This document shows, one piece after another, positions 1,807 through 36,480 of a stretch of 64,000 bases of DNA. This stretch comes from Geosiphon pyriformis uo1 (Eukaryota; Fungi; Glomeromycota). The DNA lies in NCBI GenBank assembly GCA_016748015.1, contig JAAOMT010000135.1, positions 929,085 through 993,084 on the forward strand, written 5' to 3'. Within the stretch, counting starts at the first letter, position 1. The number at the start of each line of letters is the position of its first letter. The position numbers and the translations under genes were made by a program. The notes under the pieces are model-generated. The model was not told where the DNA came from and searched no databases. It saw only the letters and a program-made list of their open reading frames with translations.

Positions 1807-2830
1807 TACTATATTATTATTTAGTAAATAATTGAAAATTTAATTAGTTATTATTATACAATTAATATGTACATATATTTATAAAAAACATTTTTAAACT
1901 TCAAATTAAACTATAGCACACATAAAAAAAAAATCCAGATCGTCTTAGCACTGGTAATTATTTAGTTGTTTTGTTGTATTTTTTCCATTCTTTAACGAAC
2001 ATCAGATTTATCAACTCTCCAGCCGAACAAACCAAGGATTTACGTGCCTACGCTGTTTCGTTTGGCTGAGCCTGTACATTGTGTCTGTTTCAAATGGAGA
2101 TAAGTACATCATTTCGTTGCAATGTGTAGAGGCATCGCAGAATACCAGTATTCTGTCGGGTCCCACACGCTGATCCGGCTAGGAAACGAAGCGACTGGGT
2201 GGTCATCCGGCGATTGTGGTACGCTGCTGGTATCCTGTTGAAAAAAATGGTGCCATATGTGGGTTGCATTCATTGTGTGTCTTTCCTGCGGGGATCCTTT
2301 CTGTTGGCTTCGATCTTCAGCTGACTGCCGTTGGTCGGGTCCACACTGGCATCTTTGACATGTCAAACTGAATAGCTACACAGCGACGATTCAAGTATAT
2401 TGTGTTTCGATCGTAAAAATGGTGCCGGGTGTGGGTTGCATTCATTGTGCGTGGACTCCCTCGACATCACTGTGTAGCGACCATCGATTGTGTCCTTGGT
2501 TGTTATGTGGAAGTGATGTTTCTTGTTTGATGATGCATTTACTGACCGAGTTATTTCCTCTGTTTAGATTCATGAAAGTTCGTCGTAATGATAATGACTG
2601 CATGGAGCAAAGAATAAACAGACGAATGAGATGACAAAGGGATCATGAAACCTCGTCGGGCGATATCAAGCGCTTGGTTCAGACCAAAATTTCGCTATCC
2701 AGAACTTGAAGATATTTAAGAAAAATTTAAAGATTAGTGTTTTTTTCTCTACTATTAGCAATGAGTGAGAAAATTTTTTTGCCGAGGGGCACACATATTA
2801 CTTCGTGAATGAAAAACCGCATCCCGAGAT

Positions 2831-3970
2831 GTGGATCCAACGATCTCGTGTGCACGTGGATTGTGATTCGCGTAGAACTCTCAATCGGTTCTCATTGGGA
2901 GATAACACCCTGCATTGTTCATCGAATGACGGTGAACATTGAGTGACTTGTCGCAGAAGCCAATTTTGGTGGAAGTGGGTAGCGTCCAACAATCTCGTGT
3001 GTACGTGATTTGTGCGTGTGCTGTGGGTTGTGCGTGTACTGGGGTGTGCCTTTTTCTGGCAATAGGGCAAATGTGAGACAACCTGCCCTGCTACTCTCAT
3101 GTATTCAGGTGCAAGAGCGTCCAGCTGTCATTGATCTGATCTGATGCTCTCATTGGCATGCTGAGTCGTGCACATTATTGTTCTGCTGTGAATAAAGCCA
3201 CACCTCGCGATCCCGTTGTAATGGATCCCAACGGTTTCTTATGTATGCGCATTGGGGTATATGTGCTTGTTCCAACAATAGCAACTGTGCTACAACCCGC
3301 CTTTGCTACTTTTATGTATTTCTGATGTCGCGTGGGTAAGAAGAGCGTCCAGCTTTCACAGACAGGCTGGGCGTGCACATGTTACTTTGGTGTGAATCAA
3401 GACACGTGAACCGGATTCAACGGTCTCGTATGTACGTGTATTGTGATTCGCGTAGCGCTCTCATTGGGAGATAACACCCTGCATTGATCATTGAGCGACC
3501 GTGAACATTGAGCGACTTGTCGCAGAAGCCAGTTTTGGTGGAAGTGGGTGACGTCCAACAATCTCGTGTGTTCGTGTACTTTGATTTGTACGTATACTGT
3601 GGTTTATGCATGTACTATGTGTGTGTATTTGTTCCAGCAACAGCGATAGTGCGATAGCCTGCCCTGCTACTCTTATGTATTCAGGAGGTGTGTACTTTTT
3701 ACTTTGCTGGGAAAAAGACACACCTTGCGATTTCGTTGCAACTGGATCCCAATGATTTCGTATGTACGTGCAGTGTTGTTTTAGTGGATCCAACGATCTC
3801 GTGTGCACGTGGATTGTGATTCGCGTAGAACTCTCAATCGGTTCTCATTGGGAGATAACACCCTGCATTGTTCATCGAATGACGGTGAACATTGAGTGAC
3901 TTGTCGCAGAAGCCAATTTTGGTGGAAGTGGGTAGCATCCAACAATCTCGTGTGTACGTGATTTGTGCGT
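2831..3970. repeat. CpG-rich complex direct-repeat array
   Basis: 2831-3017 and 3784-3970 match over 187 bp with one mismatch. A diverged third copy lies at about 3410-3590. The core TCCAACRATCTCGTGTGYACGTG-like motif recurs about 8 times. Confidence 0.85.
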
Positions 3971-4336: not shown

Positions 4337-6350
4337 CAATAATCAATATATTTAACTATAACGTGTTATATTTTAACATATAAACCAATAAATATAGTTT
4401 ATGCTTAATTATATATAATTATATATTTAAACCAATTAAAACCAAATTATAATAAATTTACAAAAATAAAACAATTATCTTTATTATAATAACAATTAAA
4501 TTATTATTATTAAAATCATACCAATCAATTATTTAACAGTTTTATTAATATTAATTTTAATATTAAAAATTTAAAGCTTTTAAAAAACCATTATTTTAAC
4601 AAAAAAATTTTTATTAACAAGAATTTAAACTATTTTTATATAAATATACTAATAAGTTTAATAAAAAACTTAATTAGCAAAGTTAACTTAATCAATTCAA
4701 ATTCAAAAAAAACCAATTTAAAATTAAAACAACAATAAATAAAAAAACTAAAGAAATAGTAATCCTAAAATAATTCTTAAAAATCTTAAAAGTTATAAAA
4801 AATAAAATAAAAATATTTTTAAATAAAAGCCAAATAATTTAAATTTTAATATTTAAAATAATATTAATAAACAGAAATTTTTTATTAAATATAATTTTTT
4901 TTAAAATACTAATTTTAACAATAATAATATTCAATTTAGCTTAAAAACCAAAAATAACAATAATATATTTTAATTATTAAACAGAATTAAAAAACTAAAG
5001 AATAAAACAAATATAACTATATACTCAAAAAATTAATTTACTAATTTTAAAACCATTATAGCCAAAAATATTAATTTGATTTTAAAAATGTTTTTTAAAG
5101 TAACAACTTTTTTAAAAAAAATTCTAATATTGTTTTTTTAATTAAAAATATAAAAAAAACTTTTTTTATTCAAAAAGCAATATTTTAAAAAAAGTTTTTT
5201 TGTTTTTACTTTATTATATTTTTTACTATTTTATAAAACATAAATTTTTTTGTTTAAAAACTGGTTAACATTAATATTTATCTTTTGATTAAAATATAAA
5301 TATAATAAAACTTATAATAATTAATTTTTTTATAAGTAATAATTTGTAATAATTAAAAATTATAATTATATTATATTATTGATTAATAATAATTAAAAAA
5401 AGTTTATATATATGAATTTTTTTTAATTTTAATAAATTTTTTGAAAATATGTTATATATAATTAAAACTATTAATTATTATTTTAGAAGTTTTATTATTA
5501 TTATTTAATTAATATAATATATTTGCAATTTAAGTTTTTTATACTTAAATAATTTAATATTAATTTTTTTAATTTCCTTAATATTATCTTAAGCTTTCAA
5601 ATTTGTTATTGAATTATAACAAATTTTAATTATATTCAATTAATTAATTTAATATAAATTTTTATTTTAAAAATAAGATTTATAATTTTTTTAGTATTAA
5701 ATACTTAATTATTTAATACATAATATTAAAGTTTTTGCGACTTTTTTTTTCTGTTTCTGTTTTAATTCAATATTAAATACTGTTTTTATTAAACTAGAAT
5801 AATACCAACAGTTTTAAATAATATATATATGAATATTAAACCAATATTTTTAGATTTAATAAATTATTTAAAATAATATAATAAAAATTTTTATATTTAT
5901 TATTATATTAGTTAACAATATATGTAAACTAACAAGTATAATAATAATACTTAAATACTACAATAATATTAATATTTATTGGTTGTATTTTGTATTTAAA
6001 AAAAACATATATTTTAGTGTTTTTTAATTTTATATTAGTTAAAATATATAATTATATATTAATTAATAATAATAAAACATTGTATTTATATTTAGTTATT
6101 TTTTAATTAAAATTTTCAAGTTATTTACCAAAAAAAATTTTTGTTATTTATGTTTTATTATTATAATAATAATAAAACTATTAAAAATAACCAATAATAA
6201 ATAATTTAAGTTGATAAAATCTATTAATATTTATAATAAATACCACAGTAATATAAAATTTGTTATGCTTATAATCTTCTATTTAACAAGTAATAATTAT
6301 TAATTTAGATTTATCTAAAAAAAACTTAGTTTTAATTATATTATAAATAT

Positions 6351-7179
6351 TATTACAAGTAATTATTTGGGGTGTTAAAACAAATAACAAACCTGTAACT
6401 TGGTGTTTAATAAGTAATATAGTTGATAATATTTGAAGATTTTTGTATCTGAAGGTTTTCATATCTGAAAATTTTAGTGGAGTCCTTTGTATAATAAACA
6501 GAGATTTCTTAATTGTTTTCAGTAGTCTTTTGGAATTGCAATTCTATTAATTTCTTTTTCAGCTTGATAACCAATAATTCTCTGGTAAGTAATCTTTAAA
6601 TTCAACTGTTTACTCTTTTGTAGGAGTTTTTTATCAAGCAATCCTTAATGTTAGTAACTCAGTACTTAATCTTTAATCAATTAATAAACAACAAAACAAA
6701 TAAAAATAAAAATAAAATAAAGAACATAAAAGAATTTAGCCAAGACAAGAAAGAGTTAATATTTTATCAATAGCTATAATCAAGAGCTATTGGTCCAGTA
6801 TACTTAAGTATTAATAATTATCAACATGTATTATTAATAATAAAAAGATAGATTGTAATAGTAATAAGTATTTTTATTGATATTTGATGTTTCCACTTTA
6901 AGTTATAGAATACTATTATATAAAGGAATGGTTATGAAATTGAAGCTAAAGATTCTAAGTTAAGAATTCTGTTTTTTTACTTTTAATACTATTGTTATAT
7001 ATACATAAATTTCATTATACAAGATTTCTTGAATTTTTCTATTTTTTAGCCAGAAATTCTGGAATTTTTGAATCCTGTAATTCTTCATACAGAAATCCTG
7101 AAATTCTACTTTTACTATATCTTATTTTGATTGGCTAATTTATGTACTAATATATAATTCTTATATTCTATGAGTAACA
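6351..7179 (-). repeat. 3' LTR of element A (about 830 bp)
   Basis: T(G>A)TTACA...GTAACA termini; homologous to the solo LTRs at 21705-22527, 35672-36480 and 36548-37532. Confidence 0.85.
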
Positions 7180-7194
7180 TTATCCCTTCTTTTT
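7180..7194 (-). promoter_or_regulatory. Polypurine tract of element A
   Basis: AAAAAGAAGGGATAA immediately precedes the TGTTAC LTR start on the minus strand; element B has GAAAGGAGGGGATAA in the same position. Confidence 0.85.
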
Positions 7195-7325
7195 AATATT
7201 GAGCTCTGTTGAAATTTTCTATATCTCCTAACTTTCCATTTTTGATTAACTTTTAAACTTTTTTTTCGAAAATTACTTAAGTTATTTTGATCTGTAATTC
7301 TTCAAATTAGGCCTTGGTCATTTTA
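7195..7325 (-). pseudogene. C-terminal remnant of the retrotransposon ORF3 in element A
   Basis: Translates KMTKA*FEELQIKIT*VIFEKKV*KLIKNGKLGDIENFNRAQY*, which aligns by eye with the end of element B ORF3 (QLTNLQFQNLQQQINNIVL...NFDGAQS*). Confidence 0.65.
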
Positions 7326-7329
7326 TTAT

Positions 7330-9084
7330 AAATTTTTTACACTTATTAACAAGCAGTAAAAATTTAAAATAAAACCTAGCAAATAAAGAGCTTTTACTAC
7401 AAAAATAAAGACAAATATAATTGTAGAAGAAAATCCAACAAGCACCTTTAAATATATTGATTAAAACAAAAGGGATGGGACTATTCCCTGCATCATTAAA
7501 AGAAAACATCACTCCTAATTGTTTTCCATCAAAAGTATTTTGGATATTATTAATCATTATTGTTTGTTTTCTAAAAAATTCAAACACTTAGTCATTATAT
7601 TATTCATAAAATTGTTTAGCGAAATTAGAATTAACACTTGCAAACAAACATGCAAGCATTTTCTCAATTGAATGAAAGTGTTGGTTTGAGTAGAATAATA
7701 TGGAGGTAATTTTGTATAAATAGAATTAATTAGCACAAGTGTGACCAGTTCTACTCTTATGTTGTTTAAGTATTTGTTGAGATAATCTGTAAAAATAAGA
7801 TTTTGATTCAATAACATGAACATCTAAGTCTGGTAAAATGACTAAATCAACAGAAAGAATTGTTAAACCAGTATTTAAAACATTTGTGGAAATGTAAACT
7901 CACTTTGTTTCATCTATAAATTTGTTATCATAATTGATAACTTGAGTTTTAATCTTACACCAGTTTAACTTGAAAGTTAGTAAAACTCTTTTTTCAACTG
8001 TTGGCATAAAAATTAATACTTTTGAAAAAGCATTATTTACAACTGTGTTGAAACAGAAACCTAAATACTGGTCAAAATTTGGTAATTAACAAAGAAATGT
8101 TTCAATCTCAAAAAGAGTTAATCCTGAAACAGTATACTGCTGGTTAAATGAAATATTATCTGTTAGCATAGTAGTAAAGTACATATTAAGAATCCAATTC
8201 TGTTTAATGAACTTGTAAAATAGTTCTTGAATATAAGCTTTATCTATTATTACAAACCCATTACCTTTATACCAGAGTAAAAAAGAATCAGGAATAGTAA
8301 AAATCACATTTTTTATTACTTTATTAGATCCATAACACCAATTATCTTTACTGAAATCAGTCAATAAACTCAGATATTTTGGAATTGATACTGTAAGTAA
8401 TGCTCTAAAAACTATTACAATTACTTGTTTCTTGAGATGTTTTTAAAGCACAATAAGGAAGTGAATTGATTTACTCCAACCAGTTGGAGCATAAAATAGG
8501 ATTTTTTCATCCAAGTTTAAATTATCTATGATTGGTTGATATTTATTGGACATACCTGATTGATTAACATTAGGCAGGTTCAGTTTTATTAATTAAATTC
8601 ACAGAATTAATTATCTATTTTTCTATTTCTATTAAGAGAAGGTTGAAGTTTAAGTTATAATGTTCAGAGCAAAAATAAGGTCAAAAAATAATTAAAAATA
8701 TTAAAAATAATGTGAAAATATTATTCTTAGTTTCAAATTTAACAAAATTACAAATATTATTGAATAAAAAGATTGATATAAAACTAAATGAAGTATTTAC
8801 ATGATTAAAGAGATCTAGATAAAAAAAAATTGATTCATAAAAACGAGTTTGGAAAATAGTTGTTATTGATTTAAAATTAAATAAAAACAATAATAGAATA
8901 TGATCAATCCAAGAAAAATAACTTTCATTTGATTAATGTTCATAATTTTTAAAGAATTTGAAATTATTACAGTCTAATAACTTAATAATTTCATCTGAAG
9001 TTTGATTGGACTTATCACATATTTGTTGGACATAATTAGAAATCTGGGTATTGTATTTCTTAATTATATATTTAATTAAGATGT
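7330..9084 (-). pseudogene. Endogenous viral element, 3' part: linker plus SF2 DExH RNA helicase, hypo/fusarivirus-like
   Basis: One frame from 8580 to about 7320 carries motif I APTGWSKS (8467-8490), Ia VIVIVFR, Ib TIPDSF, II FVIIDKAY (DKAY 8233-8244), III YFTTM, IV KVLIFMPT, V STNVLNTGLTIL and VI QHKSRTGHT (QHKSRTGH 7741-7764). Single transitions per codon restore GKS, DEAH, SDAGLTIP and QRKGRTGRT. In-frame stops are TAA/TGA. One frameshift lies near 8585. Confidence 0.85.
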
Positions 9085-10882
9085 TGTTACAGAAGTGTTT
9101 TCTTGGTATATTTTAATTGTTAATCCTCTGTTTTAATTGCAATTGGTTTTTTGTGAGTTTTTCTATTTTATGTGTTGGATATTAATAATAATATACTAAA
9201 AGTTTTTTCTTGATGTTGTAATATAAGTCTTCTTTTTAATTTTAGTTGTTTTTGTATGTTGCGTACTCCTTCCCAGAGGCTAATCTGAAATCTACCCACT
9301 GTTTGGGGTCTTTTCTGAGGCTATTTTTACAATTGCCTAATGTGTTTCTCTAATCTAGAAACACGGTGTTACTGGAGGTTTTTGGTCTCTTTTCTGTAAT
9401 GTTGTTGATACTTACTTGCTGTGAATTCACATTTTCTGGATGTGGTTGAACCTCCAATAACTGAATTTATTTTCAAATTATCTCCTATAATTTGAACTTG
9501 CTGAGCTTATAAGTGGAATGGCCAATTCCGTGCCAGTTGCTTTATGTAGTTACGTTGTAGTAAACATCAACTCTTTCCCAGAAATTGCTCATCTGGAAGC
9601 TCACTAAAAATGTGTAGTTACTTTGCTGTGAAAGTCAACTCTTCTACAGGAATCTCGTCTGTAGATTACCCTAATGATTATGATAAGAAAATAAAAGAAA
9701 ATAAAAGAAATGTAAAAGAAATAAGATTTTATCAAGGAAAACGTTTTCTATCCAGGCCTGGAGTCACTAACAGTTTACTGAAATTGGTAGCTAATCAATT
9801 TCGAAATGTTAGTTGGGTTTTGGGGGTTTTCCAAGTACAATAATTAAAGAATTTGGTTTTTTCGAATTATTTGATATTTATTTCTTTTTGTGTATATAAG
9901 AATGGTTTTAAGAGATAAATCTAAAGTAAGATACATTTTCTCGAAAAGAGAAGCTCTTCTTTTATACAACTTGTTGTAACACTATTCTATGAACTTGAAC
10001 TTTGCTATTTTCTACAATTTTGCTGAACTAAAGATACATTTCGGCGAACTATAAGTTATTTCGGCAAACTATTAGATATTTCAGTGAACTATCAATTATT
10101 TCGGCAAATTTCTACAAATTTCGGCGAACTTCTGAATGTTACATAGTTTGGGGTATTGCATGATTGATCATTGCAATTAGGTTATATTTGTGTTGTGTAC
10201 AATTTGGGTTATTAATTAAATGATAATTTCGGACATTTTTTGCCAATGTAATAAGTGATCATTTGATGATAATATATGCTAATTAATGATAGGAATTATA
10301 AGATAATTTCATGCTAAATAATATCTCTAATTTCGTCTGGTAACAACGGAATGTTAATGGCCTTTTTGCGATTTCCCTAAGTATATAATAAAGCTTTTTC
10401 AATTTAATTAGTAACCATGTGAATAATTTTAATCAAGAATTATTTTTCCAAAGAGTTCAGAAATGAAATAATAGTTTCATTTACTAGAGAGAGTATGTGA
10501 ATTCTAATGTTAATCTTGTAATTGTGATGTTTATTCAATTTATTATTTTTATTAATTCTTTTTGAATAAGATTTTATTTAGATATTTGTTGCTTCAAGTT
10601 AAAGCTTGTTTTTCTTTATCATTAAAAACTATTGTATATATATATAATTATTGTTTTACAAAATAACATCTTGTAATACTCTATTTCCATTATTTCTAAA
10701 TAGTGCTTGCTGCTTTTGCATGATAGTGCTTGCTATTATTGTAAAATAGTGCTTACTGCTATTGTACAATAGTGCTTGCTGCTATTTGTAAATCATTTCT
10801 TTTTATAAATTGTTGCTGTGCTATTTTATAATTGGCTAATTTATATTATTTATAATTCCTATTAAATTCTTGAACTATAACA
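9085..10882 (-). repeat. 3' LTR of element B, containing solo LTR C1
   Basis: 9085-9366 plus 10350-10882 align with 19786-20577; PPT at 10883-10897. Confidence 0.9.
9367..10345. mobile_element. Solo LTR C1
   Basis: TGTTAC...GTAACA termini; perfect TSD ACGG (9363-9366 and 10346-10349); homologous to 15667-16625. Confidence 0.9.
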
Positions 10883-10895
10883 TTATCCCCTCCTT

Positions 10896-11567
10896 TCAAG
10901 ATTGAGCTCCATCAAAATTGAAGTTAATTTTTTCATTAATTTCTATATTACTATAATAATCTAATACTATATTATTAATTTGTTGTTGTAAATTTTGAAA
11001 TTGTAAATTGGTTAATTGTCCAATGCTATTAATTGTTATAAAATTCATAATTAGATCCAATAGTACTTTGTAACAGTTTTCGAAAGCCTTAAAAATTCTG
11101 TAAACAGCTTTTATATAAAGTATATTGTTGGTTTTTCTAATAAAACTTTCCAATTGTTGTATCATTGTTTTGCTAAATATTTTGACTGAATTTTTTGAGT
11201 ATAATGTTTGTATGTTTAATTGTTTTCCCAATTGGTAATAACAATAATTAATGGAGAATTTTTCCTTTAGCTGTTCAAATATACTTGGTGTTAATTCTAT
11301 TATGTTCATTTCTTCTGTTATCAATGTATTGTTCAATGTTATTCCTAAATTTTTAATGGTTTTGTCGATAAAGCTGTTACTGTTTTTGGCAATAGTAGTA
11401 TATGGTATAAAACTAGGTTTCTCATTTATTGTAAAATTTGGTATTATTTTTCTTTTATATGATATCTCAGAACTATTGATTGTAATTTCCAAATCTGAAT
11501 TTGATTGTTGTAAGCTTTGACATAGTTGTTGAGTTAACTTACTAATGTTTTCTGGAATATATGTCAT
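10896..11567 (-). CDS. Extra ORF3 of element B (223 aa, unknown function, at the env position)
   Basis: Open ATG-initiated ORF between the integrase GPF tail and the PPT; its stop codon overlaps the PPT; no obvious signal peptide or TM segment. Confidence 0.6.
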   Translation of the reverse strand: MTYIPENISKLTQQLCQSLQQSNSDLEITINSSEISYKRKIIPNFTINEKPSFIPYTTIAKNSNSFIDKTIKNLGITLNNTLITEEMNIIELTPSIFEQLKEKFSINYCYYQLGKQLNIQTLYSKNSVKIFSKTMIQQLESFIRKTNNILYIKAVYRIFKAFENCYKVLLDLIMNFITINSIGQLTNLQFQNLQQQINNIVLDYYSNIEINEKINFNFDGAQS

Positions 11568-11779
11568 TGTTTTAATTTTTGACTGCTTTTTTGGGCTCTT
11601 TTGTATGCATTTTTATGCTTTGTTAATTGTTTCTTGGTGTAATTTAAGATTAATTATCTTTTTATATAATGTTCAATTAAAATTACTGGTTCTAAATTTT
11701 GTGGAATCTGATCTGGTGATACTAGTAGTATTTGTGTTTTAATTCTAAGTGTTTGTGTTATTATTACTGATTTGTTGTA

Positions 11780-13020
11780 ATATAATTTCAGCTGGTTGCC
11801 ATGTGCTGCTTTTCTTAAAATTTTCTCATTTAGTCTTAACTTGTATGCTCTATTGTCAAGTATTTCATGAATATAGAATAGTCTATCCCACTTGTGATCA
11901 AACTTTTCACTTCATTGCTTTTCTGTTTTGGTATAATACAACAATACTTTGTCTCCTATTTTATAGCTAATTATATTATCTGGTAACTAGTTATTATGTC
12001 TTACTTTTTGTTGTGTTTATGACTGTTCAAAATTTTGAGTTGTTTTTCTTCTTTTGTTTTCCAAAATTTCCATTAACTCATATGTTCTTCTAAGTATTGT
12101 TTCATGGAATGTTGTTTCTGTAATAATTTTATTTGAATAAGTTGGAATAGTAAGTTTAATTGGTAATATGGCCTTTCTTTTATAAACCAATTCAAATGGT
12201 GTGAATTTTATAGTATCTTGTTTTAATGTTCTATATGCTAATAAAACTGCTGGTATGAACAAATTCCATTTTTTTTCATGTTCATTGCTAATTTTGGTTA
12301 ATGCTTCACATAGTATATGGTTAATCCATTTGTTTGGAGGTGGTATAGTAATAATAATGGTTGTTTAATTCCAAATCTTTGGCTGAGCTTATTTAATGTA
12401 CTGTTTACAAAATATGTTCCTTGATCTAACAACAATTCTTGTAGACATCTATGGCAGCAAATTAAATCTTCATGTACAAAGTGGGCTATGGATATAGCAT
12501 CAGCTGTTTAAATGGCTCTGGCTTTTGATCATTTAGTGAAGTAATCTACTGCTATTGTAATATAATAATTGTTTCTTACTGTTATTGGTAATAGTCCAAC
12601 TAAATCAATTCCAATTCTATCAAATAGTTGTCCAACTTTTATGGGTCTTAGTGGTTCTGTTGTTTTTGTTCTTTCTTTTTGTTGGCACAAGTCACAATTT
12701 CTTATGTATTGGATAATATTTGAGTGTATTTTTGGCCAATAATAACGACTAGTTGTATGTTAAATAGTTGCTTCTTTTTCAAAGTGGTCTGAATAGATAT
12801 CCAAGTGCATATTAAATAAGATGGTTTTTTTTTATTTTTGGTTATAACTCTCAATGAATTATCTGGATTTTGTTAATTCTGGTAATAAAATATGTGGTTT
12901 TGAACAAAATAATGTTTTAATAATTTTTGAAACTTAATTAGTTTTTTTATCAGTGTGTTTTCATCTAGCTGTAGTGTTTTCAAGTATTGGCTAAGATTTT
13001 TGTAAAGATAATTGTCCATT
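11780..13020 (-). pseudogene. Integrase of element B (HHCC, DDE core, GPY/F tail)
   Basis: H..H/CDLCQ zinc finger, IGIDLVG, LLAYRT..FTPFELVY and KWDRLFYI (= KWDGPF); multiple stops. Confidence 0.85.
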
Positions 13021-13039
13021 GTTTATGAATTGGTTGTTG

Positions 13040-14400
13040 TTTAATGGTTTTTATGTGTATCTCATTTGCAACAAACAGTCAGCATTGGCATTTTTGGTAC
13101 CTTTTTTGTATTTGATGATATAATTATATGGTGCTAATATTTGTGACTATCTGGCATATTTTTTTTTCAGTGCTTTTTTGTTATTTAACCAGACCAGACC
13201 TCTATAATTTGTGGTAATATCAAAGAGTTTGTACTGTAAATATGTGTTAAAGTGAACACAACTCCAGACTACTGTTAAGCATTCTAGTTCATGTGCTGCA
13301 TAGTTTTGCTCTGTCATATTAAGACTTCTACTGACATAAACAATTATATGTTCTCTTTCATTATTATCTTTTTGTAAAAGAATGGCTCCAAGTCCAGTTT
13401 TAGAGACATCTGTGGCCAAAATGAATTTCTTGTTGAAATCCGAATAGATTATTATTGGTAATTCAATAAGCTTTTTGCTGTGTTTCAATTCATTCAAATT
13501 TCACATTTTTGGATAGTAGATAATTAAGAAGTTTGGTGATGTTTGAAAAGTTTTCTACAAAGTGGTGATAATAAGATGCAAGTTCTAAAAAGCTTCTAAT
13601 TTATAAAACATTTCAAGATACTGGAAAATTTTTCACTTTGTCTATTTTTAATGGATCTGGTTTTATTCCATTTTTTCCAACTACGTGTTCTAAAAATACT
13701 AGCTCATTTTTCTCAAAGAAACATTTTTTTAAATTTAATTTAAGTTTAGCATATCTCAATCTCTCAAAAAATTATTGTAAATATTGGAGATAATCTGCAA
13801 ATTTTGGCAAGAAAACATTTGTATTATCTAAGTAAACAACAACAAATTACCACAGAATTTCAGAGTAAATTATGTCTATTAGTCTTTGAAATATTACAGG
13901 AGTGTTTGTCAATCCAAATAGCATTACATTGAACTCATAATTGCTATTTTGTGTTGTGAATGCTGTTTTATGTCTGTCTTTTGGGTCTATTTCTACTTGT
14001 CAGTATCCACTGGTCAAGTTAAGTGTAGAAAACCATTTTGCTCTTCCAAAAATGTCAAAGATTTCGTCAATTAATAGTATTGGGTATAAGTCTTTGGTTG
14101 TTTTGCTGTTTAGTTTGTGATAATTGATGCAAAATCTAATTTTTCTGTTCTTTTTTCTTACTAAAACAACTAATGAGAATCATGGGCTCATTGATGATTG
14201 AATTATTCCTTTTTCCAACATGCTTTGAACTTTTTTTCTGATAAAATTATGCTCTATTGATGGAACACAGTAAGTGTATTGTTTTTTAGATCTGGTGTCC
14301 CCAGTGGGGATTTGGTATTAAACCAAGTTGGTTCTTCCAAATTCGCCATTTTATGAAAATATATCAGAGTATTTTAAAATTAATGCTTTTAATTGTCATT
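13040..14400 (-). pseudogene. Reverse transcriptase and RNase H of element B
   Basis: RFCINY..LN, WFSTLNLTSGY, FVVVYLDNT (YLDD, about 13823-13834) and RNase H FILATDVSKTGLGAIL...NYAAHELECL (ORF 13147-13497). Confidence 0.9.
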
Positions 14401-14794
14401 GTTGGTCCAGATCTATTGTTCCAATGTTTAATTTGGCCAATTTTTCTGGTGTAAATTGATAGCATTCCAATGGTTGTTGTCAATTTATTGAAGTGAGTTT
14501 ACAGTAAAAAGCGATTTCTAGTAAATTTGGAATTTTTTGTGGTGTTGATGCATTTTCTAGCTTCATTTCAAGGTATCCCATAATGGTGTTTTTTGGAATA
14601 TATATGAGCTCTTCTGTGGTATTCGTGATAGGAATTTTTATCCATTGTGTTTTGTCAGCTGGAATAAAAAGGTTAGTAAGTTCTATAGAAAACTGTTGGC
14701 AAGTTTCTGGGTGGGGCTCAAATATTAGATTTATATCTTTTATTGTCCTTTTTATTTTAATTTCTGATTTTCCATAAGACATGAGCATGATTGA

Positions 14795-15260
14795 CTACTT
14801 AGTTTTAATTAATTTGCCTTTTTCTTCTATTGTTTCAGCAAAATTTGCTTTAATTTCTTTTCTTGTTGATCCAAAACTAAAAGTTCCTTTCGTTGTTTGT
14901 ATCAATTCTTCATGATTTTCTATTGGCACAAATTTCCCAATTTTTACCAATGGTAAAAAAATTGCTTGTGCAATCTTTTCCTTAGATTCAATGGTATAAA
15001 GTTTTTTTGAATTGTTTTGTAGTAAAACCATCAAATTTCCAGTGTATCCAGAGTCAATTACTCTTCCTTGAATGCTTATTCTTTTTTTTGCGAGGCTTGA
15101 TTGTGATGCTATTTGAATCATTATTCCTAGCAGAATTTCAACCACTATTTTCAAGTCAATTTTAGTAATGCTCCTGGGTAATAACATTGTGGATTGGTTT
15201 TCTGGATAACATAGATTAAATTTGGTGTCAGTTGGATGAACTTTTTTGGGTATTATCCCT
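14795..15260 (-). pseudogene. dUTPase domain within pol of element B
   Basis: Trimeric dUTPase motifs in order: TKFNL (AGFDL), SQSSL (RSS), GRVIDSGYTG, KIAQ and KGTFSFGST. Confidence 0.9.
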
Positions 15261-15666
15261 AAGTGCCCATTGTCAAAGTATTAGATGTTGATCTTTTGAT
15301 TTAGATTGGTATAGACTAAAATATTTTCTGACTCAGGACCATTAGGTGAGTTTTGTTGATTTATTGATTGATTTTGGTATTGCTAATTTTCAATTTCCAT
15401 TTTTCTTTCTAAGTTTTTTTTGTATTGACACTCTTCACAGCACTGACTTTAGCACAGGATAAGACAGTCTTCACAAAAATAAGTGTTGATCTGGACAAGA
15501 TACTGTTCCTGTTCTTGGTAAGTGGAACACAGCTGTTGATAATTTTTCTGGAATTTGTCCACTGGGTCAAACATGTTATAGCTGGCAACTTTATCAGCTA
15601 TTTCAGCTGACACTTTCTAACATCGTATTTCTTCAGCAGTTTTTTCTTTTACTTTGGCTTGTGTGG

Positions 15667-16625
15667 TATTATCAGAGGTTTTTGGTCTCTTTTCTTGAAT
15701 GTTGTTAATGTTGATTTGCTGTTAATTCACATTCTCAGGAAGTAGTTGGACCTTTAGTAACTGAATTTATCTTCAAATTATTTCTTATAATTTGAATTGC
15801 TGGGCTTATAAGTGGAATGACCAATTCCTTGCCAGTTACTTTATGTAGTTATATTGTAGTAAATGTCAACTCTTTCCCAGGAATTGCTCATCTGGAAACT
15901 CATTAAAAATGTGTAGTTACTTTGTTGTGAAAGTCAACTCTTTTACAGGAATTTTGTCTGTAGGCTACTCTAATAATTATGATAAGAAAAAAAAAGAAAA
16001 ATAAAAGAAATGTAAAAGAAATAGGATTTTATCAAGGGAAACGTTTCTATCCAGGCCTGGAGTCACTAACAGATTACTGAAATTAGTAGCTAATCAATTT
16101 CAAAACATTAGTTGTGTTGAGGGAATTTCAAGTGCAATAATCAAAGGATTTGGGTTTCAAATATTTAATTTTTATTTGAAATATATAAAAGGTAATTTGT
16201 TTTCATTAAGATATCTAAAGTAGGATACTATGAGAAGATACATTTTCTTGAAGAGAAAAGCTCTTTTTTTATACAACTTGTTGTAGTACTAGTCTTTAAA
16301 CTTGCACTTTTCTCTTTTCTACAATTTGGGCAAACTAAAGATATATTTTGGTGAACTACAAGTTATTTCACTGAACTATTTAATTATTTCGGCAAATTTT
16401 CATTAATTTCGGCGAATTTTGACTATGTTAAATGGTTCAGAGTATTGTGTAATTTAATCATCTTAATTTCTAGAGTACAAATTGGATTATTGATTGAGTA
16501 ATGATATTTGATAATTTAATTAAATAATAAGTGATAATTGAAATGATAATGATATATGCTAATTAATAATAGAAATTATAAAGGTAATTTTATGCTAATT
16601 AATAGCTAAAATTCCACTGGTAACA
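15667..16625. mobile_element. Solo LTR C2 inserted in pol of element B
   Basis: Homologous to C1 along its length; ends GGTAACA; flanks GTGG/ATGA differ only by G>A. Confidence 0.85.
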
Positions 16626-17199
16626 ATGATGTTATATAACTTATCCTCATTATATGGGTAGTGCTATAGTCTTCTTAATGCTCTGTTGAATGCTGCTTCA
16701 AACAGCATTTCTCCTCTTACCCAGTTACAAATGAGGATTGTGTATTGGCAAGTTGCATTACACATTCCTTCTTTACCTGGCATGTCAATCCAGTCACATT
16801 CTTTTGGCAACAGTTCTCCACAAATGAGACATGGTTTTTTGTCCCATTTTTCATGTCTTTCTAAGTAACCATATTTTTTTTTGTTATAACAGTTACAATA
16901 GTAGTGGATGGGGTTTTTTGGGTCTTTATCTAATGTACTGCATGCAGTCATGAACGAAAGTTTCTTATTATAAACCAAACATTCTAGTTTTGGTCTGTGT
17001 TGCTAACAGTTTTTTTGTAAACTTACCTGGTTCTATTTGGATCTTTCTTTGCTTCTCCAAGTTGATATGGCCAGTAGTCTTGTTTTTTGGTCATCAGCCC
17101 ACAAGAGCTGATAAGTTTTGATGGCTGGTAGGGCTGAATTTTTCTCAAATTTGAAGGTGGGTCTTTGTTTAGTACTGGGTTTTTGGAAGTGGCCACATG

Positions 17200-17600
17200 T
17201 GGCTGGAATTCTGGCATGATAGCCATTATAGCTGATAAGAAGCTCTTGGGTGGTTCAGTCTAATGTGGTGTTGGCTTTTATTAGCCAGTCATTCTTTACT
17301 AACACTTGATATTATGTAACATCTGTTATTAATACTTTTGTAAGTATTATTATGCCATTAATTTCAAAAGGGAATGTGTTGATTTTGCCATGAGGCAGCT
17401 TGGTACTTTCATCGACTATTATAATTTGGAATATTATGGTGTAATCAACTTTGAAACCTAGTTGGTTTACTAGTTGAAGTGTCACAATACTTCCGGCAAA
17501 TCCACTATCTAAGATGAGTTTAATTGGCATGTTGTTTATTTTTGCTTCTATGTATATAGCAGTAATTGGGCATTTCTCATCTAATGCTGTTTCACTAAAC
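17200..17600 (-). pseudogene. Aspartic protease of element B
   Basis: IKLILDSGFAGS (DSG catalytic motif) in ORF 17312-17860. Confidence 0.85.
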
Positions 17601-18049
17601 ATAGCTTTTTTTTCCTCTAATTCAAAAAAAAAAATAGCTATAAGACTGCTATCTTTTGTGATAACAGCTGGTGGTATTGTTTGGATCAAGTTCTGACTAT
17701 TGGTAATATTTTCAGTTCCAGGTACATTACTATTTATATTTTCGAGATTTAAGTTTTCTGATATATTAAGATAAGTTGGCTGAAAATTTGGATAGTTTGA
17801 GTAGTTTGTGTTTGTTTGCTGATTAGGTCCTATGTGATTAGAATTTCTAGTAATAATCACGTTTTGACCTAATACTGGCTGGCTTCAAAACTCTGGATGC
17901 CAGTTTGGATTTGGAATCACTGGTCATTGCTGATAAGTTTCTTGATTTTGGTATGTAGTGGGGTATTGATGTAGTATTGGCATGTATTGATTTTTGAGCA
18001 TTTGGAAGGAGCATGTAATAATTATTTTTGCATGCCTTTTGCATCATTC

Positions 18050-19770
18050 ATGTTTAATATTGGCCAATTAAATATCCTATGCATTTGCAAAAATGGCAGA
18101 TGCATGTTTCTGTTCTGAAGTCTTAACACAACAAGCAATTATTTTGGCTGCCGCTAAATTCCTGGTTGCATCTTTGAGGTGTTTGGTATGTGTTATTTCT
18201 TTCTGGGTCTAAGATGAGGTAACTTTCTATTTTCTTAGAGAGTTCCTCCCCTAATTGTGTTACTCTCTTTTCTAATGTTTCTGTCTTGTTTTTTTTTATT
18301 ATTATGTTAATTATTTGACTATGGTTAGCTTTTTTCTCAGCCAATTCAAGAGCTTTGGCAAGTATAATGGCTTCTGGTAAGGAATTAGGGTGGGCAGAAC
18401 ATACTTTTCCTAAAATGCTGCTTTTTAATCCTCTAATAAATTGATTTAAAACCTGAGGATCAGTATAGTATCCTTGCTTAATCACTTTAATCTGATGGCA
18501 AATTTGATTGAATTGAGCAAAGTATTGGGTAACAGTTTTACCTGTATCTTGCTTGATAGTATTAAATTCATTTTGCAGTTGGATTATAACATTTGGGTCG
18601 CTAAAATACTCCAAGAGTGTATCTTTAAATTTGGCAAAGCTTGTGAGTTTTGTTTTTAAGCTTTGATACCATGAGTCAGCAGTGTTTTTCAGGAAGAAAG
18701 ATAATGTTTAGATTACTCTTTGATCATTCCAGTTATTTGCTTGAATGGCTTTTTGTGCTTCTCTGAGCCATATGTGTATGTCTGTTTTTTCTTCTTTTCC
18801 TGAAAAATCTGTTAATTATGCAATATAAAATGTGGCCATTTTGTCATTGTTTCCTGCTGGTAGGTTTATTGATCTAAGAAGAGATGGGATGATATTTCCT
18901 TGAGCATTCCTAAAGATGGCTTCTCTTATATCTAGTTTTTTTTTTTGATCATGAGTTTTTTGGTTTCTGAATTGGCTGCTTGTTCCAGTGACCAGTCTTG
19001 TGCTTGTTTTTTCACTGGTTTCTTTGGATTTTGATTTAGACTCCTCTTCACAGTTTTCAAACCCTGCTCCAAATTTTGGTTGAAAAAAGGGTTTTTGGAA
19101 TAGTAATGAATATTCTCCTGTTATTGGTATATTTCCCCAATCACATTGTTTAAGTTTATTAGTATAATTAGGAGTTCTCGGTATTTGTGAGGTTGATGTG
19201 AATGATGATGCAGCTCCTAATAAGAGTTGGATTTTATTATCTGGGGAAAAATGGTAAGATCTTTCTTCTGGCAAATGAAGACATTGTTTCTTTACTAATT
19301 GCACAACGTTTTTCTTGGGTGTTTGGGTGGGTGTTTCTAATTTTTACTGATTTTCTTCATGATTAATTTCTGGATTGTGGACACATTCTCTGGTGTTCTT
19401 TGTGGATATTGAATAATTTTCATTGGCATATTGCTTAATTTCATAATGAATTTGAACAATAGTCACAGCTAATGCTGTTGTTTCTTTTGTAGTAAATTAA
19501 GATAATTCCCTATATAATTAATGTTTTGCATCATTTGGTTCTTCTTTCCTTCTTATGTGATAATTTATTTTGGTATTAATGTAATAGGTGAGAGCATTTT
19601 CAGCTGGACAATACTCTTTTGGTAATCCAAAATCACTTTGATGTTGTAAATAAAAGACACAACAGAATTCAACAACAGTAAGATTAGGAGTTTTTGTTGC
19701 CACTTTTGTTTCTTCTTTTTTAGCAATGAATTATTGCTAATTATTATTTTCTTTTTAATTTTTTTTCCTC
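18050..19770 (-). pseudogene. gag of element B
   Basis: FSGKEEK..IWL, NNWND, ADSWYQSL, IKQ...TVTQY and QFIRGL, plus a degenerate CCHC knuckle near 18060-18110. Confidence 0.85.
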
Positions 19771-19783
19771 ATAGGGTTCACCA
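19768..19783 (-). promoter_or_regulatory. Primer binding site of element B
   Basis: TGGTGAACCCTATGAG begins 2 nt after the 5' LTR; TGG pairs with the tRNA CCA end. Cognate tRNA not identified. Confidence 0.75.
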
Positions 19784-19785
19784 AA

Positions 19786-20577
19786 TATTACAGAAGTGTT
19801 TTCTTGATATATTTTAATTGTTGATCTTCTATTTTAATTACAATCAGTTTCTCATGAGTTCTTTTATTTTATGTGTTAAATATTAATAATGATATACTAA
19901 AAGTTTTCTCTTAATGTTGTGATGTAAGTCTTTCCTTTAATTTTAGTTGTCTTTGTATGTTGTGTACTCTTTCCCAGAGGCTAATCTGAAATCTACTCAC
20001 TGTTTGGGGTTTTCTCTGAGGCTATTCTTACAATTGCCTAATGTGTTTCTTTAATCTAAAAACATGGAATATTAATGGCCTTTTCATGATTTTTCTAAGT
20101 ATATAATAAAGCTTTTTTAATTTAATTAGTAATCACGTGAATAATTTTGATCAGAGATTATTCTTTCAAAGGGTTCAAAAATGGAATAATAGTTTTATTC
20201 ACTAGAAAGGGTATGTGAATTCTAATGTTAATCTCATAATTGTGATATTTATTCAATTTATTATTTTTATTAATTTTTTTTGAATAAGATTTTATTTAGA
20301 TATTTGTTGCTTCAAGTTGAAACTTGTTTTTCTTCATCATTAAAAACTATTGTATATATATATAATTATTGTTTTACAAAATAATGTCTTGTAATATTCT
20401 ATTTCCGTTATTTCTAAATAGTGCTTGCTGCTATTGTAAAATAGTGCTTATTGCTATTGTATGATAGTACTTGCTGCTATTTGTAAATTATTTCTTTTTA
20501 TAAATTGTTGCTGTGCTATTTTATGATTGGCTAATTTATATTATTTATAATTCCTATTAAATTCTTGAACTGTAACA
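19786..20577 (-). repeat. 5' LTR of element B
   Basis: Aligns with the 3' LTR; starts TGTTACAG on the minus strand. Confidence 0.9.
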
Positions 20578-21245
20578 ATGTTATTTTCTACATCTATTGT
20601 TAAATTGAAAGTTAAAGATAAAATATTGTTATAAAAAATCTTTAGAAAATCATAAATTTGTTCTTTTAAACTTAAAAAATTCTTAAAATCTTCCTCAAAT
20701 TCCTTAAATTCTGTTAAAAAAACTTTTGCAAGATGCTTAGTTAATAGTTCATAAAACTTAATTAATATTTGTTTATAAGTTGAAAATGCAATTTTGAAAT
20801 GAGGGTTTTTAATGCATTTAGGATTTTTCTTAATATATTGATTAAATAGTTGATCTATAATGAAAAATAAATCTTTATAGTAAACTGATATTAGTTTATA
20901 AGCTGCAAATTTTTGAATAAAGTCTGTTTTAGTAGATTTAGATTTTTTAAATTTATTAAATTTTTGAACAATTTTATTATAATTGTGACAAATTTTATAT
21001 TTAAAAAAAGAACCAAAATAATTACTGAAAATCTTTGATTCTTTTTCACTTAAGTGAAATATTGATTTGAAAAGAAATTCACAATTATAGATTGATTCTT
21101 TACTTTTTATTTTAAGAAATAATGTTCTTTTATATTTAAGTTCTGTCAATTTAACAATATCATAAATAGTGTTTTTTGTTTTATTTAAGGTCATATAAGA
21201 ATTTGATTTACAATCTAAAATATTATTATTATCATAATTTGACAA
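20578..21245 (-). pseudogene. Endogenous viral element, 5' part: RdRp motif C to thumb, hypo/fusarivirus-like
   Basis: LSNYDNNNIL becomes LSNYGDDNIL with three A>G reversions (21225-21233). CEFLFK corresponds to motif E EFLSK. ICHNYNKIVQK, ISVYYKDLF (AHHKD) and FSTYKQIL (PTYEQ) follow in the order recalled for Durnavirales RdRps. The frame continues across the element B TSD into 9082. Confidence 0.72.
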
Positions 21246-21584
21246 GTCATAAAATACTATTGTATAAAGAGATAATTATAGAATTGAAACTAAAGGTTCT
21301 AAGCTAAGAATTCTGTCTTTCTGCTTTTAACACTACTACTATATATACATAAATTCTATTATATAAAATTCCTTAAATTCTTCAATTTTCTAGCCAAAAA
21401 TTCTGGAATTCCTTGTAAAAAATTCTGGAATTCTTGGATCTTGTAATTCTTTATATAAGAATTTTGTAATTCTAGAATTTTGCAATTCTTTCAAAAAAAA
21501 TTCTGAAATTATACTTTTACTACATTTTATTCTGATTGGTTAATTTATGTACTAATATATAATTCTTATATTCTATGAGTAACA
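21244..21584 (-). repeat. Truncated 5' LTR of element A (first about 340 bp only)
   Basis: Aligns with about 6899-7179 and includes a TATATATA box (21340-21347). The remaining about 550 bp of the LTR and the PBS are absent. Confidence 0.85.
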
Positions 21585-21704
21585 ATATTAAGATAATTAT
21601 AAAAATCTATAGTAAACAACAAAAATTTGGAATTATTTAAAAAAAATAGAATAATATTTAGATGTTAATATTAAATATTGCACTTTTAGATGCAAATTTG
21701 ACAA

Positions 21705-22527
21705 TATTACTTATAAAATATAAGAAGAATATTAGCATATAAATTAGCCAATTAAAAATAGCTGTAATAAATATGGAATTCCAAGATTTCTCTTAAAAAA
21801 ATTGTAAGATTCCAAGAATTTCAGGATTCTCATATAAAAAATTACAGGATTCCAGAAATTCCAGAATTCTTGAAGTGAAGAATTAAGAAATTGAAAAATT
21901 TCAATTATGTATATATAGTAGTAGTATTAGAAATAGAAAAAACGGACCTCTTAGTTTTAGATTTCATCTAAGCAATCTTTTAATTCACAAATACCAATAA
22001 ATAATTATTTACTATCTTAATCTACTCTCCACTATCAACACTTCATGTTAATAGTATCAAATACTTGATCACATTAGAACAATAGCTTTTGATCATGACT
22101 ATTAACAGATACTAACATTAATTGCCTTGGCTTATTTCTTTATTTTCTTTTATTTTTCATTTTTTTTTATTTTGTTTTTTCTTGTTGTCAACTAATTTGA
22201 TTAAAAATTAAGCACTGAATTATTAACATTAAAGATAACCTGGTAAAAGATCCCAAAGAAAAGTATAGAGTGAAAAATTTAAGAATAACTTACCAGAAGA
22301 GCATCTCTGCCAGATTACTAATCACTATGCTAAGAAAAAAATTTGACAGAATTGCGATTCCAGGAGGCTACTGAAACACTATTGAATTTCTGTTCATTAT
22401 ACAAAAAACTCCAATCCAAAAACCTTCAGATCATGAAAATCTTTAGAAACCAACATTATTATATCAATTGAGTACCAAGTTACAAGTTTGTTATTTGTTT
22501 TGAGACTCCGAATAATCACTTGTAACA
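21705..22527 (+). mobile_element. Solo LTR related to element A, opposite orientation
   Basis: Reverse complement of the A-type LTR; ends TTGTAACA; TSD ACAA/ACAG. Confidence 0.85.
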
Positions 22528-33616: not shown

Positions 33617-35671
33617 TAAAAATGAATAATATTAATGACCATTAGTCTTAATTTTTTCCTTGTATTGTCAAAATAGAATCTATTTAATATAATAAATGAC
33701 ACAAGAGAGAAAATATTTAGAATTATAGTTTTAAAACAGAAAGACAACATTCGTCATTAGCGAACGTTAAATACCATTTTTCTAGTCAATTTTCACTCGG
33801 AGATATTAATATCATGTTTGTCAAAGCTGTTCTTTTAAAAATATAACTTGAAGAATTGGATAAATCTGTTTTTTAATATTTAAAAATAAAGAAATTAAAT
33901 AATCCATTTTAACAAACTGCCAGTCTTGTCGTTAAATTTATAAAACATAACGAAATATATATTACTCTGTTATCATATACAAAATCAAAACACAGCTAAT
34001 TACTTTGAAAAAACCATTTTATTATTTTTTGATACAGTATTTTTCTTTTCTTAAGCAATTTATTTACACATGTTTTATATTTTAACAAAACAACAATAAT
34101 GCTCAATATTTTTATTAATATTAATATTTTTTTAATTTTACATTTCAAGTATTTTGTAAATCTAATAATACATAGTTATTTTCAAAAAAATCAGTTTAAT
34201 AAAATAATTTTATATAATTATATTATATATTAAAATATAATTAATTTAAAATTTTAATATAATAATAATTTTTTATACAATTGAAATTTATTTTATTTAT
34301 ATTATATATATAGTTTTTTATAATTTGTTTTTATCATAAAAATAGTGTTTAATTTTTAATAAAACATAATTGTAAACAGTAATTAAAAGATTTTTTTTTA
34401 ATATTCAATTGTAAATAAATATAGTATATTAACAAATAACATTATATATTGCTTTTTTTATTAGAATATTTATTTATTTAAACTTATTATATCTTATTTT
34501 TCATGATATTTTAAATAGCCAAAAAAATTTTATAATAAATATTATAATAAAAATACATAATAATATTTTATTTTTTATTTAAAATATAACAAACTCTTAT
34601 TAATAAAGTTTTTATTATATTTATACAAATTAATTAAAATTTTAAATTTAATTAATAATTATTTTTATAAAACAATTTTAAAATATTTATTGATAATAAA
34701 TACTCAAATATATTTTTTTTTATTGTAATTTATGAGTAAAGCCCAAATATTATTTAAAACAATATAATTATTTAGAGTTTTAAATTAGATATAAATTATG
34801 TATTTATTATATATAATTAGTCATCTGGTTGATTAAGACTATATTATATAACTATATTAATTATAATATTTTTTATTGTACCAGCAAAAAACAAATAACT
34901 TATCCTTAAATCAAAACTAATAGCATGACTTTTCTTTACTTCTAACAACCAAGCAATCTTAATTAAAATTTTAACAAAAAGATCACAAATAATATCAAAC
35001 AAGAAGCTATCCTTATTCAACAAACTTCTACAATCTATGTCAATTTAGAGCTTCAAATTAGGCATCCAAATTTGCTTCTTATAGCCAATAACCAAATTAT
35101 GTACAAACTCAACCAATTTAATTGTAACAAGATTAGCATTTCTAAAAGAAGTTATAGTTTTTACCAACCAACTTTTAAGCACAAATTCTTTGTATAAGAC
35201 AATATATAAACTTGCATCAAAAATACATAAATCTAGCAACTAAAAAACTACTGATGATACCAAAATTATTTTAGTCAAAGACTTTTAAATAAAAAAGCAC
35301 TTATTTAATAAAACCCAATAAACTAGTAAATTCAAATTGCAAAAAAAACTGTAATTCAAAAACTCTATTTTTCTGTAGTACACACACAATACACTTGAGT
35401 AATTATAATCATATAAGTATTTTCTAACTGCTATAGACAATCTTTTATGAACTGTTTTTATTAAATAAGTGCACAAATTAGCTATTTATTTGTATATATA
35501 GCTGACTGTCATATAAGAATTAGAATGCCAAATTATAGCAATAAGCTGCCAATTAATGTCACTAATTTGCAAAAAATTTACAGTATTGAAACCAGGCCCA
35601 ATTTCTTATTGAAAATGTCTTATAGTATTATATATAATCTTAATAAAATACCAAGTATTGCTAAAAAACAC

Positions 35672-36480
35672 TATTATAGATAATTATTTGGGGTGTTAAA
35701 ACAAATAACAAATCTGTAACTTGGTGCTTAATAGCTGATAATATTGATAATTTCTGAAGATTTTGAAGTTTGAAAATTTTGGTTAAGTTTTTTATATAAT
35801 AGACAAAAATTTAATTGATGGTTTCTTCAGTAAATTTTTTTTTTCGGTATAATGGCCAGTTTATTTTGGCAATTGTGCCCTTTTAGTAAGCTATTTTTAA
35901 ATTTTTACTATTATTTCCAGATCTTTTATCAAACTATTCTTAACATCAATTACTCAGTGCTTAATCTCTTTAATCAATTAATAAATAACAAAAAAACAAA
36001 ATAAAAGAAAATAAAAAATTAGTATTTCATTAATAGTTATAATTAAAAGCTATTGATCCAGTATAGTTAAGTATTGGATTTTATCAACATAAAGTATTGA
36101 TAAAGTTAAATAAATTAATATTTTTTTAATTAAGTAATAATAACATGAATTTAAGAATAATAGATAATTTTATTAATATGAGAATAATTTTATATTAAGT
36201 TATAGAAAACTATCTTTTGAAGAAAAGAATATTGTTCTAAATTAATATAAACTTTATTGAATTCTCCTAAAATTACTTTTTTTGCTTTTAACATTTTTAC
36301 TATATATATATAATTTATATTATATAAGATTCTTAAGAATCCTACAATTTTTTAAAAAAATCCTGAAATTCTGCAATTCTGCAATTTTTTGAGAAAATTC
36401 TGGAATTTTCTATTTTACTATACTTATTTCTGATTGGCTATTTTATCTATTATTATAATTCCTAATTTCTATGAATAACA
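35672..36480 (-). mobile_element. Solo LTR, element A-related
   Basis: Both ends match the 6351-7179 LTR; flanks ACAC/GCAT differ only by transitions. Confidence 0.8.

Follow-up and report, generated by a model that had tools for sequence, protein, structure and literature searches.

A hypovirus-like replicase fragment enclosed by a retrotransposon unit in the genome of Geosiphon pyriformis

How does a piece of an RNA virus come to lie inside a retrotransposon of a fungal chromosome? The question is raised by a stretch of 64,000 nucleotides from Geosiphon pyriformis uo1 (GenBank assembly GCA_016748015.1, contig JAAOMT010000135.1, positions 929,085 to 993,084), here called the window and numbered from its first letter. 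A first-pass annotation had proposed that positions 6351-21584 hold an RNA-dependent RNA polymerase (RdRp) and helicase of a mycovirus, captured as RNA by a Gypsy retrotransposon. Homology, layout and pairing of the long terminal repeats (LTRs) support the capture of viral RNA inside one Gypsy-type unit. The insert comprises about 2.42 kb on the minus strand and has the same sense as the surrounding unit, designated A. Virus homology, sense orientation, layout, ATAT flanks and the later insertion of a second element, B, are shown by the sequence. The homology to viral replicases is clear, and the insert is a decayed, single-copy fragment of the replicase gene of a hypovirus-like RNA virus.

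Viral homology and decay of the insert

Protein alignments were made with two viral polyproteins, P0077, which is encoded by contig L001, and P0006. Residues 664-891 of P0077 corresponded to window positions 21251-20574 (60% identity, E 9e-77), residues 888-1056 to 9088-8585 (47%) and residues 1067-1430 to 8565-7474 (53%). The three pieces have the same order in the window as in P0077, and P0006 showed the same collinearity, with 51% identity in the RdRp piece and 38% in the linker. Between the first two pieces lies element B (9085-20577, minus strand), a younger Gypsy retrotransposon recognised by its Pfam matches, its LTR pair and an ATGT target site duplication (TSD) at 9081-9084 and 20578-20581. 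As the first-pass annotation had claimed, excision of B at this duplication rejoins the viral frame, so that residues 664-891 and then 888-1056 of P0077 are matched continuously; a single frameshift is located near 8570-8585.

The RdRp piece (20582-21251, minus strand) extends from motif C through motifs D/E and the thumb, contains no stop codon and lies within a stop-free minus-strand frame at 21275-20541. Its RdRp content was thus confirmed from motif C onward, which reads YDNN where relatives have YGDD, while motifs A and B are absent and the piece alone gave no Pfam RdRp match. Screens with RdRp profiles would miss this fossil for these reasons. The methionine-started ORF (open reading frame) of this piece had no entry in the protein collection searched. 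It is followed on the minus strand by the RdRp-helicase linker (8585-9084), which ends at the ATGT of 9081-9084, and by a DExH helicase of superfamily 2 (SF2) at 7474-8565, which comprises motifs I-VI together with flanking sequence and is broken by stops. A hydrophobic, stop-free extension of the helicase frame (7326-7473, minus strand) shows single-copy depth (88.7) and is presumed to be viral; beyond 7474 it gave no significant alignment to L001 or L002. A candidate 2A-like motif near 7480 was rejected, as the aligned residues of P0077 are not 2A-like.

For the helicase, Pfam returned Helicase_C (E 5e-4). With stops written as X, it matched 69 proteins at E<=0.001 in a library of 1.84 billion proteins (best 3.9e-33), and 22 of the 24 matches scanned against Pfam carried both RdRP_1 and helicase domains. 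These proteins and the collinear matches to P0077 and P0006 bear out the predicted layout of RdRp followed by DExH helicase and its viral origin. Among the matches of a word-index search, only Pythium ultimum RNA virus 1 had a name; the helicase alone aligned to it, the RdRp piece and the linker giving no alignment. The helicase had no match in the PDB.

Relative to L001, 126 G>A and 161 C>T changes are found in the insert, against 35 and 55 in the reverse directions; its GC content has fallen from 0.326 to 0.220, and 9 of 754 aligned codons are stops. Amino-acid differences from P0077 number 348; C>T/G>A in the insert would account for 130 of them and the opposite change for only 13, whereas the same ratio is balanced between extant relatives (28:20, 35:38 and 7:8); the proposal that such transitions explain the motif deviations was thereby substantiated. 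Damage extends to RdRp motif C and to motifs II and VI of the helicase; with its catalytic motifs destroyed, the gene is dead. Stops occur in 0 of 224 codons of the RdRp piece and in 9 of 530 elsewhere (p = 0.04), which raised the possibility of selection; this was rejected because the piece has fewer stop-prone codons (8 of 226 versus 28 of 541 in L001) and a destroyed motif C. The insert could possibly serve as a source of small RNAs.

One of the three sequencing runs listed, X1, gave contigs of the locus; X2 and X3 gave none, and no RNA run was listed among those holding the stretch, results that are uninformative about absence or expression. An X1 contig is identical to the window over 7283-9116, bridging the junctions at 7325 and 9084 with at least 31 nt on each side, and another is identical over 20552-21272. 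Sequencing depth was 88.7 in the left part of the insert and 114.8 in the RdRp piece (107.6 in its adjoining flank), which resembles the unique flanks (76-108) and indicates a single copy at a likeness of at least 85-90% in X1. The LTR family of A, by contrast, has a very high copy number as judged by summed contig depth. Homology to a non-retroviral RNA virus is thus joined to contiguity with host DNA, the latter seen in the splitting by a transposable element with its TSD, the host-type C>T/G>A decay, the flank-like depth and the junction-bridging contig, as expected for a non-retroviral endogenous viral element (EVE).

Unit A and the route of capture

On the minus strand, unit A reads ATAT, 341 bp of LTR, virus, 146 bp of internal sequence with a polypurine tract (PPT), an 829-bp LTR and ATAT. 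The full 3' LTR (6351-7179) aligned end to end with family copies C and D and belongs to the high-copy family. The adjoining 3' internal sequence (7180-7325) ends in the PPT at 7194-7180 and was recognised from family contigs: three further contigs, from X1, match 7190-7325 and continue with sequence that differs from the window, and as they diverge past 7324-7325 the 3' junction was placed near 7325. The 5' LTR (21244-21584) consists of its first 341 bp with an intact outer TG end. Identity between the two LTRs is 85%, with 39 transitions, 2 transversions and an identical first 44 bp; they are mutually closest among the five LTR copies in the window, the remaining nine pairs being 66-79% identical with 20-62 transversions.

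The first-pass annotation had described one integrase-type unit with TG..CA ends, an ATAT TSD and a PPT, holding the virus between its LTRs. The ATAT copies (6347-6350 and 21585-21588), the PPT (7180-7194), the paired LTRs and an LTR at each end stood; the left outer end (6351) reads TA rather than TG on the plus strand and has decayed. The right LTR covers 341 of 829 bp, the rest of it and the primer binding site (PBS) are absent, and the virus is accordingly not enclosed by two full LTRs. Nor does A retain gag and pol in Gypsy order; its Gypsy affinity is suggested by the likeness of its PPT and LTR ends to those of B, which has that order. The annotation had overlooked the feature that carries most mechanistic information, namely that an 8-nt overlap with the virus (21244-21251, minus strand) marks the point of truncation in the 5' LTR. 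This overlap is 7/8 identical to the left LTR and encodes Y-D-L, which also occurs in P0077 and P0006; a run of this kind is expected at 4-6 x 10^-4 per random position pair.

A TATA-like run has survived in the truncated LTR, some 100 bp upstream of its junction with the virus, and the RdRp piece might be transcribed from it. Three more A-related LTRs occur in the window at 21705-22527, 35666-36480 and 36549-37250; one of these, lying 120 bp away from the end of A, is a solo LTR and has an ACAA/ACAG duplication.

When an LTR element is reverse-transcribed, the minus strand passes LTR, PPT, internal region and PBS in turn, the last being required for the second jump. If synthesis moves to (+) viral RNA after 146 nt of the internal region, the insert takes the same sense and the PBS is lost. 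The reading we prefer, with a probability of roughly 0.55, is that a Gypsy reverse transcriptase (RT) switched onto viral RNA and that, after an aberrant second strand transfer, integrase inserted the virus fragment. The minus strand would have been extended over the LTR, the PPT and a further 146 nt of element RNA before synthesis changed template to the (+) viral genome, entering it a little beyond the helicase and working back as far as RdRp motif C. As the resulting cDNA end had no PBS, it would have paired with plus-strand strong-stop DNA by means of the 8-nt overlap within the LTR, with only the outer 341 bp of the 5' LTR being rebuilt and both integrase ends restored. Integration by the element's integrase would have been followed by the insertion of B and by C>T/G>A decay. 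That the retrotransposon family of A made the capture, whether by template switch or by way of a longer chimera and a deletion, appears probable to us.

This second route supposes that a chimera with a full 5' LTR, a PBS and perhaps more virus integrated and was later shortened between the 8-nt microhomologies. Microhomology marks end-joining deletions, so this route predicts an identical 5' junction, which counts against the direct strand transfer, and the G/C clock given below fits it equally well. It requires a second event, and no longer copy was seen, the insert being single-copy at >=85-90% likeness in X1; we consider such a deletion rather unlikely, though it is the chief competitor of the preferred reading.

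Viral cDNA made by some RT could also have been used to repair a break in an A element that had integrated earlier, replacing the inner 5' LTR and the internal region without any part played by integrase. The region is rich in repeats with many nested insertions, and template switching is not the only process that could place a junction 146 bp from the PPT. Patching would leave LTRs older than the virus, while the estimated G/C loss is equal within a wide error: 0.328 per copy for the A LTRs and 0.325 for the virus, the latter assuming a donor GC content like that of L001 (near 0.33). The sense orientation would moreover be a coin flip, and we regard patching as improbable. With a lower loss in the B LTRs (0.18-0.21), the near-equal values fit a joint arrival of virus and A and a later one of B.

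Several points weigh against capture by template switching. The A-LTR clock rests on about 60 G/C sites (roughly 0.21-0.45 by our own estimate). The evidence from junction microhomology covers the 5' junction only. A 4-bp match such as ATAT has a chance of 2.9% in these AT-rich flanks, which makes the TSD alone weak evidence, and short-repeat indels between the two A LTRs amount to 61 bp. The X1 contig passes the right-hand junctions by only 28-29 nt, below the 31-nt bridging rule, and the assembly support comes from X1 contigs, a run that may be the window's own source. The chance of the ATAT match, the indels between the LTRs and the possibility that X1 is the source, together with the very many family copies, would favour two unrelated LTR remnants flanking the virus by chance, or an assembly artefact, which is nevertheless highly improbable in view of the 39:2 ratio of transitions to transversions between the ends and their identical first 44 bp, the viral frame continuing across the TSD of B, and the X1 contig bridging the 7325 and 9084 junctions.

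The donor virus and its relatives

Quick trees without bootstrap were calculated for the RdRp (55 rows, and 32 of those rows with a mixture model) and the helicase (69 rows); they included no named hypovirus, and the insert fills 38-41% of the RdRp columns with a biased composition. The insert was sister to P0077 in all three, with SH-aLRT (approximate likelihood ratio test) values of 94 (55 rows), 95 (32 rows) and 91 (helicase). In both RdRp trees it belonged to an eight-row clade with a long stem (SH-aLRT 100). Outside this clade fell the fusarivirus-like rows that bear names, which we take to be filed as fusarivirids: Penicillium roqueforti ssRNA mycovirus 1, Agaricus bisporus virus 11 and Pythium ultimum RNA virus 1. 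In the 55-row tree, a join with P0019 is flagged as a long-branch one. The insert shares with Fusariviridae a single protein holding RdRp and helicase, and does not group with fusarivirid RdRps. Judged by these sequences, the donor is not a fusarivirid and belongs to an unnamed clade whose closest members found are environmental sequences. P0073, deposited as 'Pernambuco nodavirus', shows RdRp-helicase similarity and groups with the fusarivirus-like rows.

Three contigs of the clade encode putative coat proteins in their 5' ORFs: the ORF of L001 matched TMV_coat with E 9.5e-21, that of L008 TMV_coat with E 2.2e-8 and that of L009 Closter_coat/Flexi_CP with E 7.5e-9, whereas the 5' ORF of L002 (291-947) matched neither a coat family nor any other Pfam entry. 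The replicase lies downstream of other ORFs in L001, L002, L008 and L009, and in the three coat-bearing contigs the coat ORF is upstream of it. The TMV-like coat ORF of L001 (109-1077) is followed, after one TGA, by an in-frame stretch of 124 residues resembling a read-through product, presumably akin to the coat read-through of furoviruses. The corresponding ORFs span 172-693 in L008 (TMV-like coat) and 168-914 in L009 (clostero/flexi-like coat). That close relatives differ in their 5' genes suggests an exchange of coat genes within the clade. Shortly ahead of the replicase frame, a further ORF of L001 (1496-2272) contains two 2A-like D(I/V)EENPGP motifs; 2A-like ribosome-skip motifs occur at differing positions in other polyproteins (residue 1535 of P0005, residue 297 of P0006).

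The assignment to Hypoviridae or Fusariviridae made in the first-pass annotation could not be upheld, as the companions of the insert in the trees are unnamed viruses, with the named fusarivirids placed elsewhere, and coat genes occur in three contigs of its clade. Fusarivirids are capsidless and, in bicistronic members, have a 5'-proximal replicase (PMC11094367); hypovirids are likewise capsidless (PMC12643068). Both families share with the present viruses the order of RdRp and SF2 helicase in one protein and the (+) single-segment layout seen in the relatives' contigs. Unlike in bicistronic fusarivirids, the replicase of those four contigs is not 5'-proximal, a region that the insert itself does not cover. 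The capsidless genome with one or two ORFs that characterises hypovirids is not seen in the sister contig L001, the 5' region of the donor not being preserved. By analogy with this contig, the donor probably had a coat gene; no remnant of the coat genes of L001, L008 and L009 or of the L002 5' gene was found elsewhere in the window among the tblastx matches listed, in a noisy output.

Capsid-encoding groups basal to Hypoviridae, e.g. f.0066.base-Hypo, have been described (10.1101/2022.02.15.480533). They share with the present clade a hypovirus-related replicase and a helical-virus coat, and compared by description the Closter/Flexi coat of L009 fits, while the available part of that description does not mention TMV-like coats such as those of L001 and L008. 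A further-reaching reading, which we hold to be somewhat less likely than not, is that a Gypsy particle copied a capsid-encoding, hypovirus-related RNA virus and that integration was rescued by a PBS-independent second strand transfer, with early-branching Glomeromycotina as natural hosts of a hypovirus-like lineage with TMV-coat or flexi-coat genes. The locus would then be an entire fossil of this mishap of reverse transcription in a fungus.

Genomic surroundings and known endogenous viruses

Element B has its 5' LTR at 20577-19786 and its 3' LTR at 10882-9085 (88-92% identical, no transversions), a PBS and a PPT, and the order gag, protease, dUTPase, RT, RNase H and integrase with zinc finger. 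The dUTPase lies between protease and RT (14798-15280), and an extra 3' ORF of 238 residues without Pfam match (10896-11612) between integrase and PPT. Two solo LTRs of a third family are nested in B: one in its 3' LTR (9367-10345), with an ACGG duplication and 78% identity to the other copy, which lies inside the pol region (15667-16625).

The window is AT-rich and its repeats are CpG-depleted. Its last septin exon is 100% identical to a G. pyriformis protein (Ambispora 98%, other arbuscular mycorrhizal fungi 91-95%, Jimgerdemannia 84%), and 410 of the 423 residues of the G. pyriformis septin protein occur verbatim in the window, which identifies the host as G. pyriformis or a very close relative. 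The gene just upstream (51650-56517) matches the N-terminal, WD40-annotated part of septin-fused proteins in Funneliformis and Gigaspora, which suggests a conserved gene order and merged gene models in these two genera. The region 2000-3970 is GC-rich (46%) and CpG-undepleted and contains a 187-bp repeat at 99% identity with a third, diverged copy; its ORFs had no Pfam match, and neither this region nor the rest of the window had an Rfam match. Two elements like long interspersed nuclear elements (39937-45889 and 59821-64000) carry an RNA recognition motif in ORF1, the former also with endonuclease, RT and RNase H matches.

Recombination of lymphocytic choriomeningitis virus with a retrotransposon (the intracisternal A-particle) was reportedly described by Geuking in 2009. 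In Aedes aegypti, same-orientation pairs of Gypsy elements and EVEs and template switching have been described (10.1101/127498). These Ty3/gypsy EVEs resemble our locus in that a piece of a non-retroviral RNA virus lies in Gypsy sense and template switching is proposed; here, the host is a fungus, and both integrase ends, a PPT and a TSD belong to one unit whose truncated 5' LTR is joined to the virus at a microhomology. For the totivirus-derived non-retroviral integrated RNA viruses of yeasts, the available text reports no obvious retroelement signature in the flanks and genes under purifying selection (PMC2805616). They too are RNA virus genes in fungal chromosomes that needed a co-opted RT, whereas the present locus has an explicit retroelement and has lost its catalytic motifs.

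Hypovirus-like RdRp EVEs with antisense small RNAs were found in Gigaspora margarita and G. rosea, that of G. margarita having CHV4 as best viral match (PMC7082362), and EVEs of Hypofuvirales have been reported in glomeromycetes (10.64898/2026.08.03.742603). The main text of the latter, in the part available, names neither Geosiphon nor LTRs or retrotransposons; its Table S4 may list this host. These sequences share with ours a hypo/fusari-like RdRp endogenised in Glomeromycotina; no LTR context is described in the accessible portions of these sources, whereas the Geosiphon locus includes RdRp and helicase, junctions, a TSD and a dating. Geosiphon is moreover a reported host of a tymo-like virus (PMC7482067). 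No fungal LTR-bounded capture with this junction anatomy, and no report of the locus, was found in a literature search that left subscription journals largely outside. EVEs of the broad virus group in these fungi are hence not new; what is new is the preserved anatomy of the capture and the host link for a clade with coat genes.

That RNA viruses lacking a DNA stage enter fungal genomes by way of retroelements has mostly been inferred. This locus has kept the ends of the element, its PPT and TSD, the overlap at the junction and a decay clock that matches, so that the route of entry becomes testable. The fossil also indicates a likely fungal host for a hypovirus-like clade found here only as unnamed environmental contigs, several of them with coat genes. 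These genes bear on the former encapsidation of hypovirus-like viruses and on which fungi carry them. If the proposed link is true, this coat-bearing lineage would correspond in kind to the capsid-bearing ancestor that has been proposed for hypoviruses.

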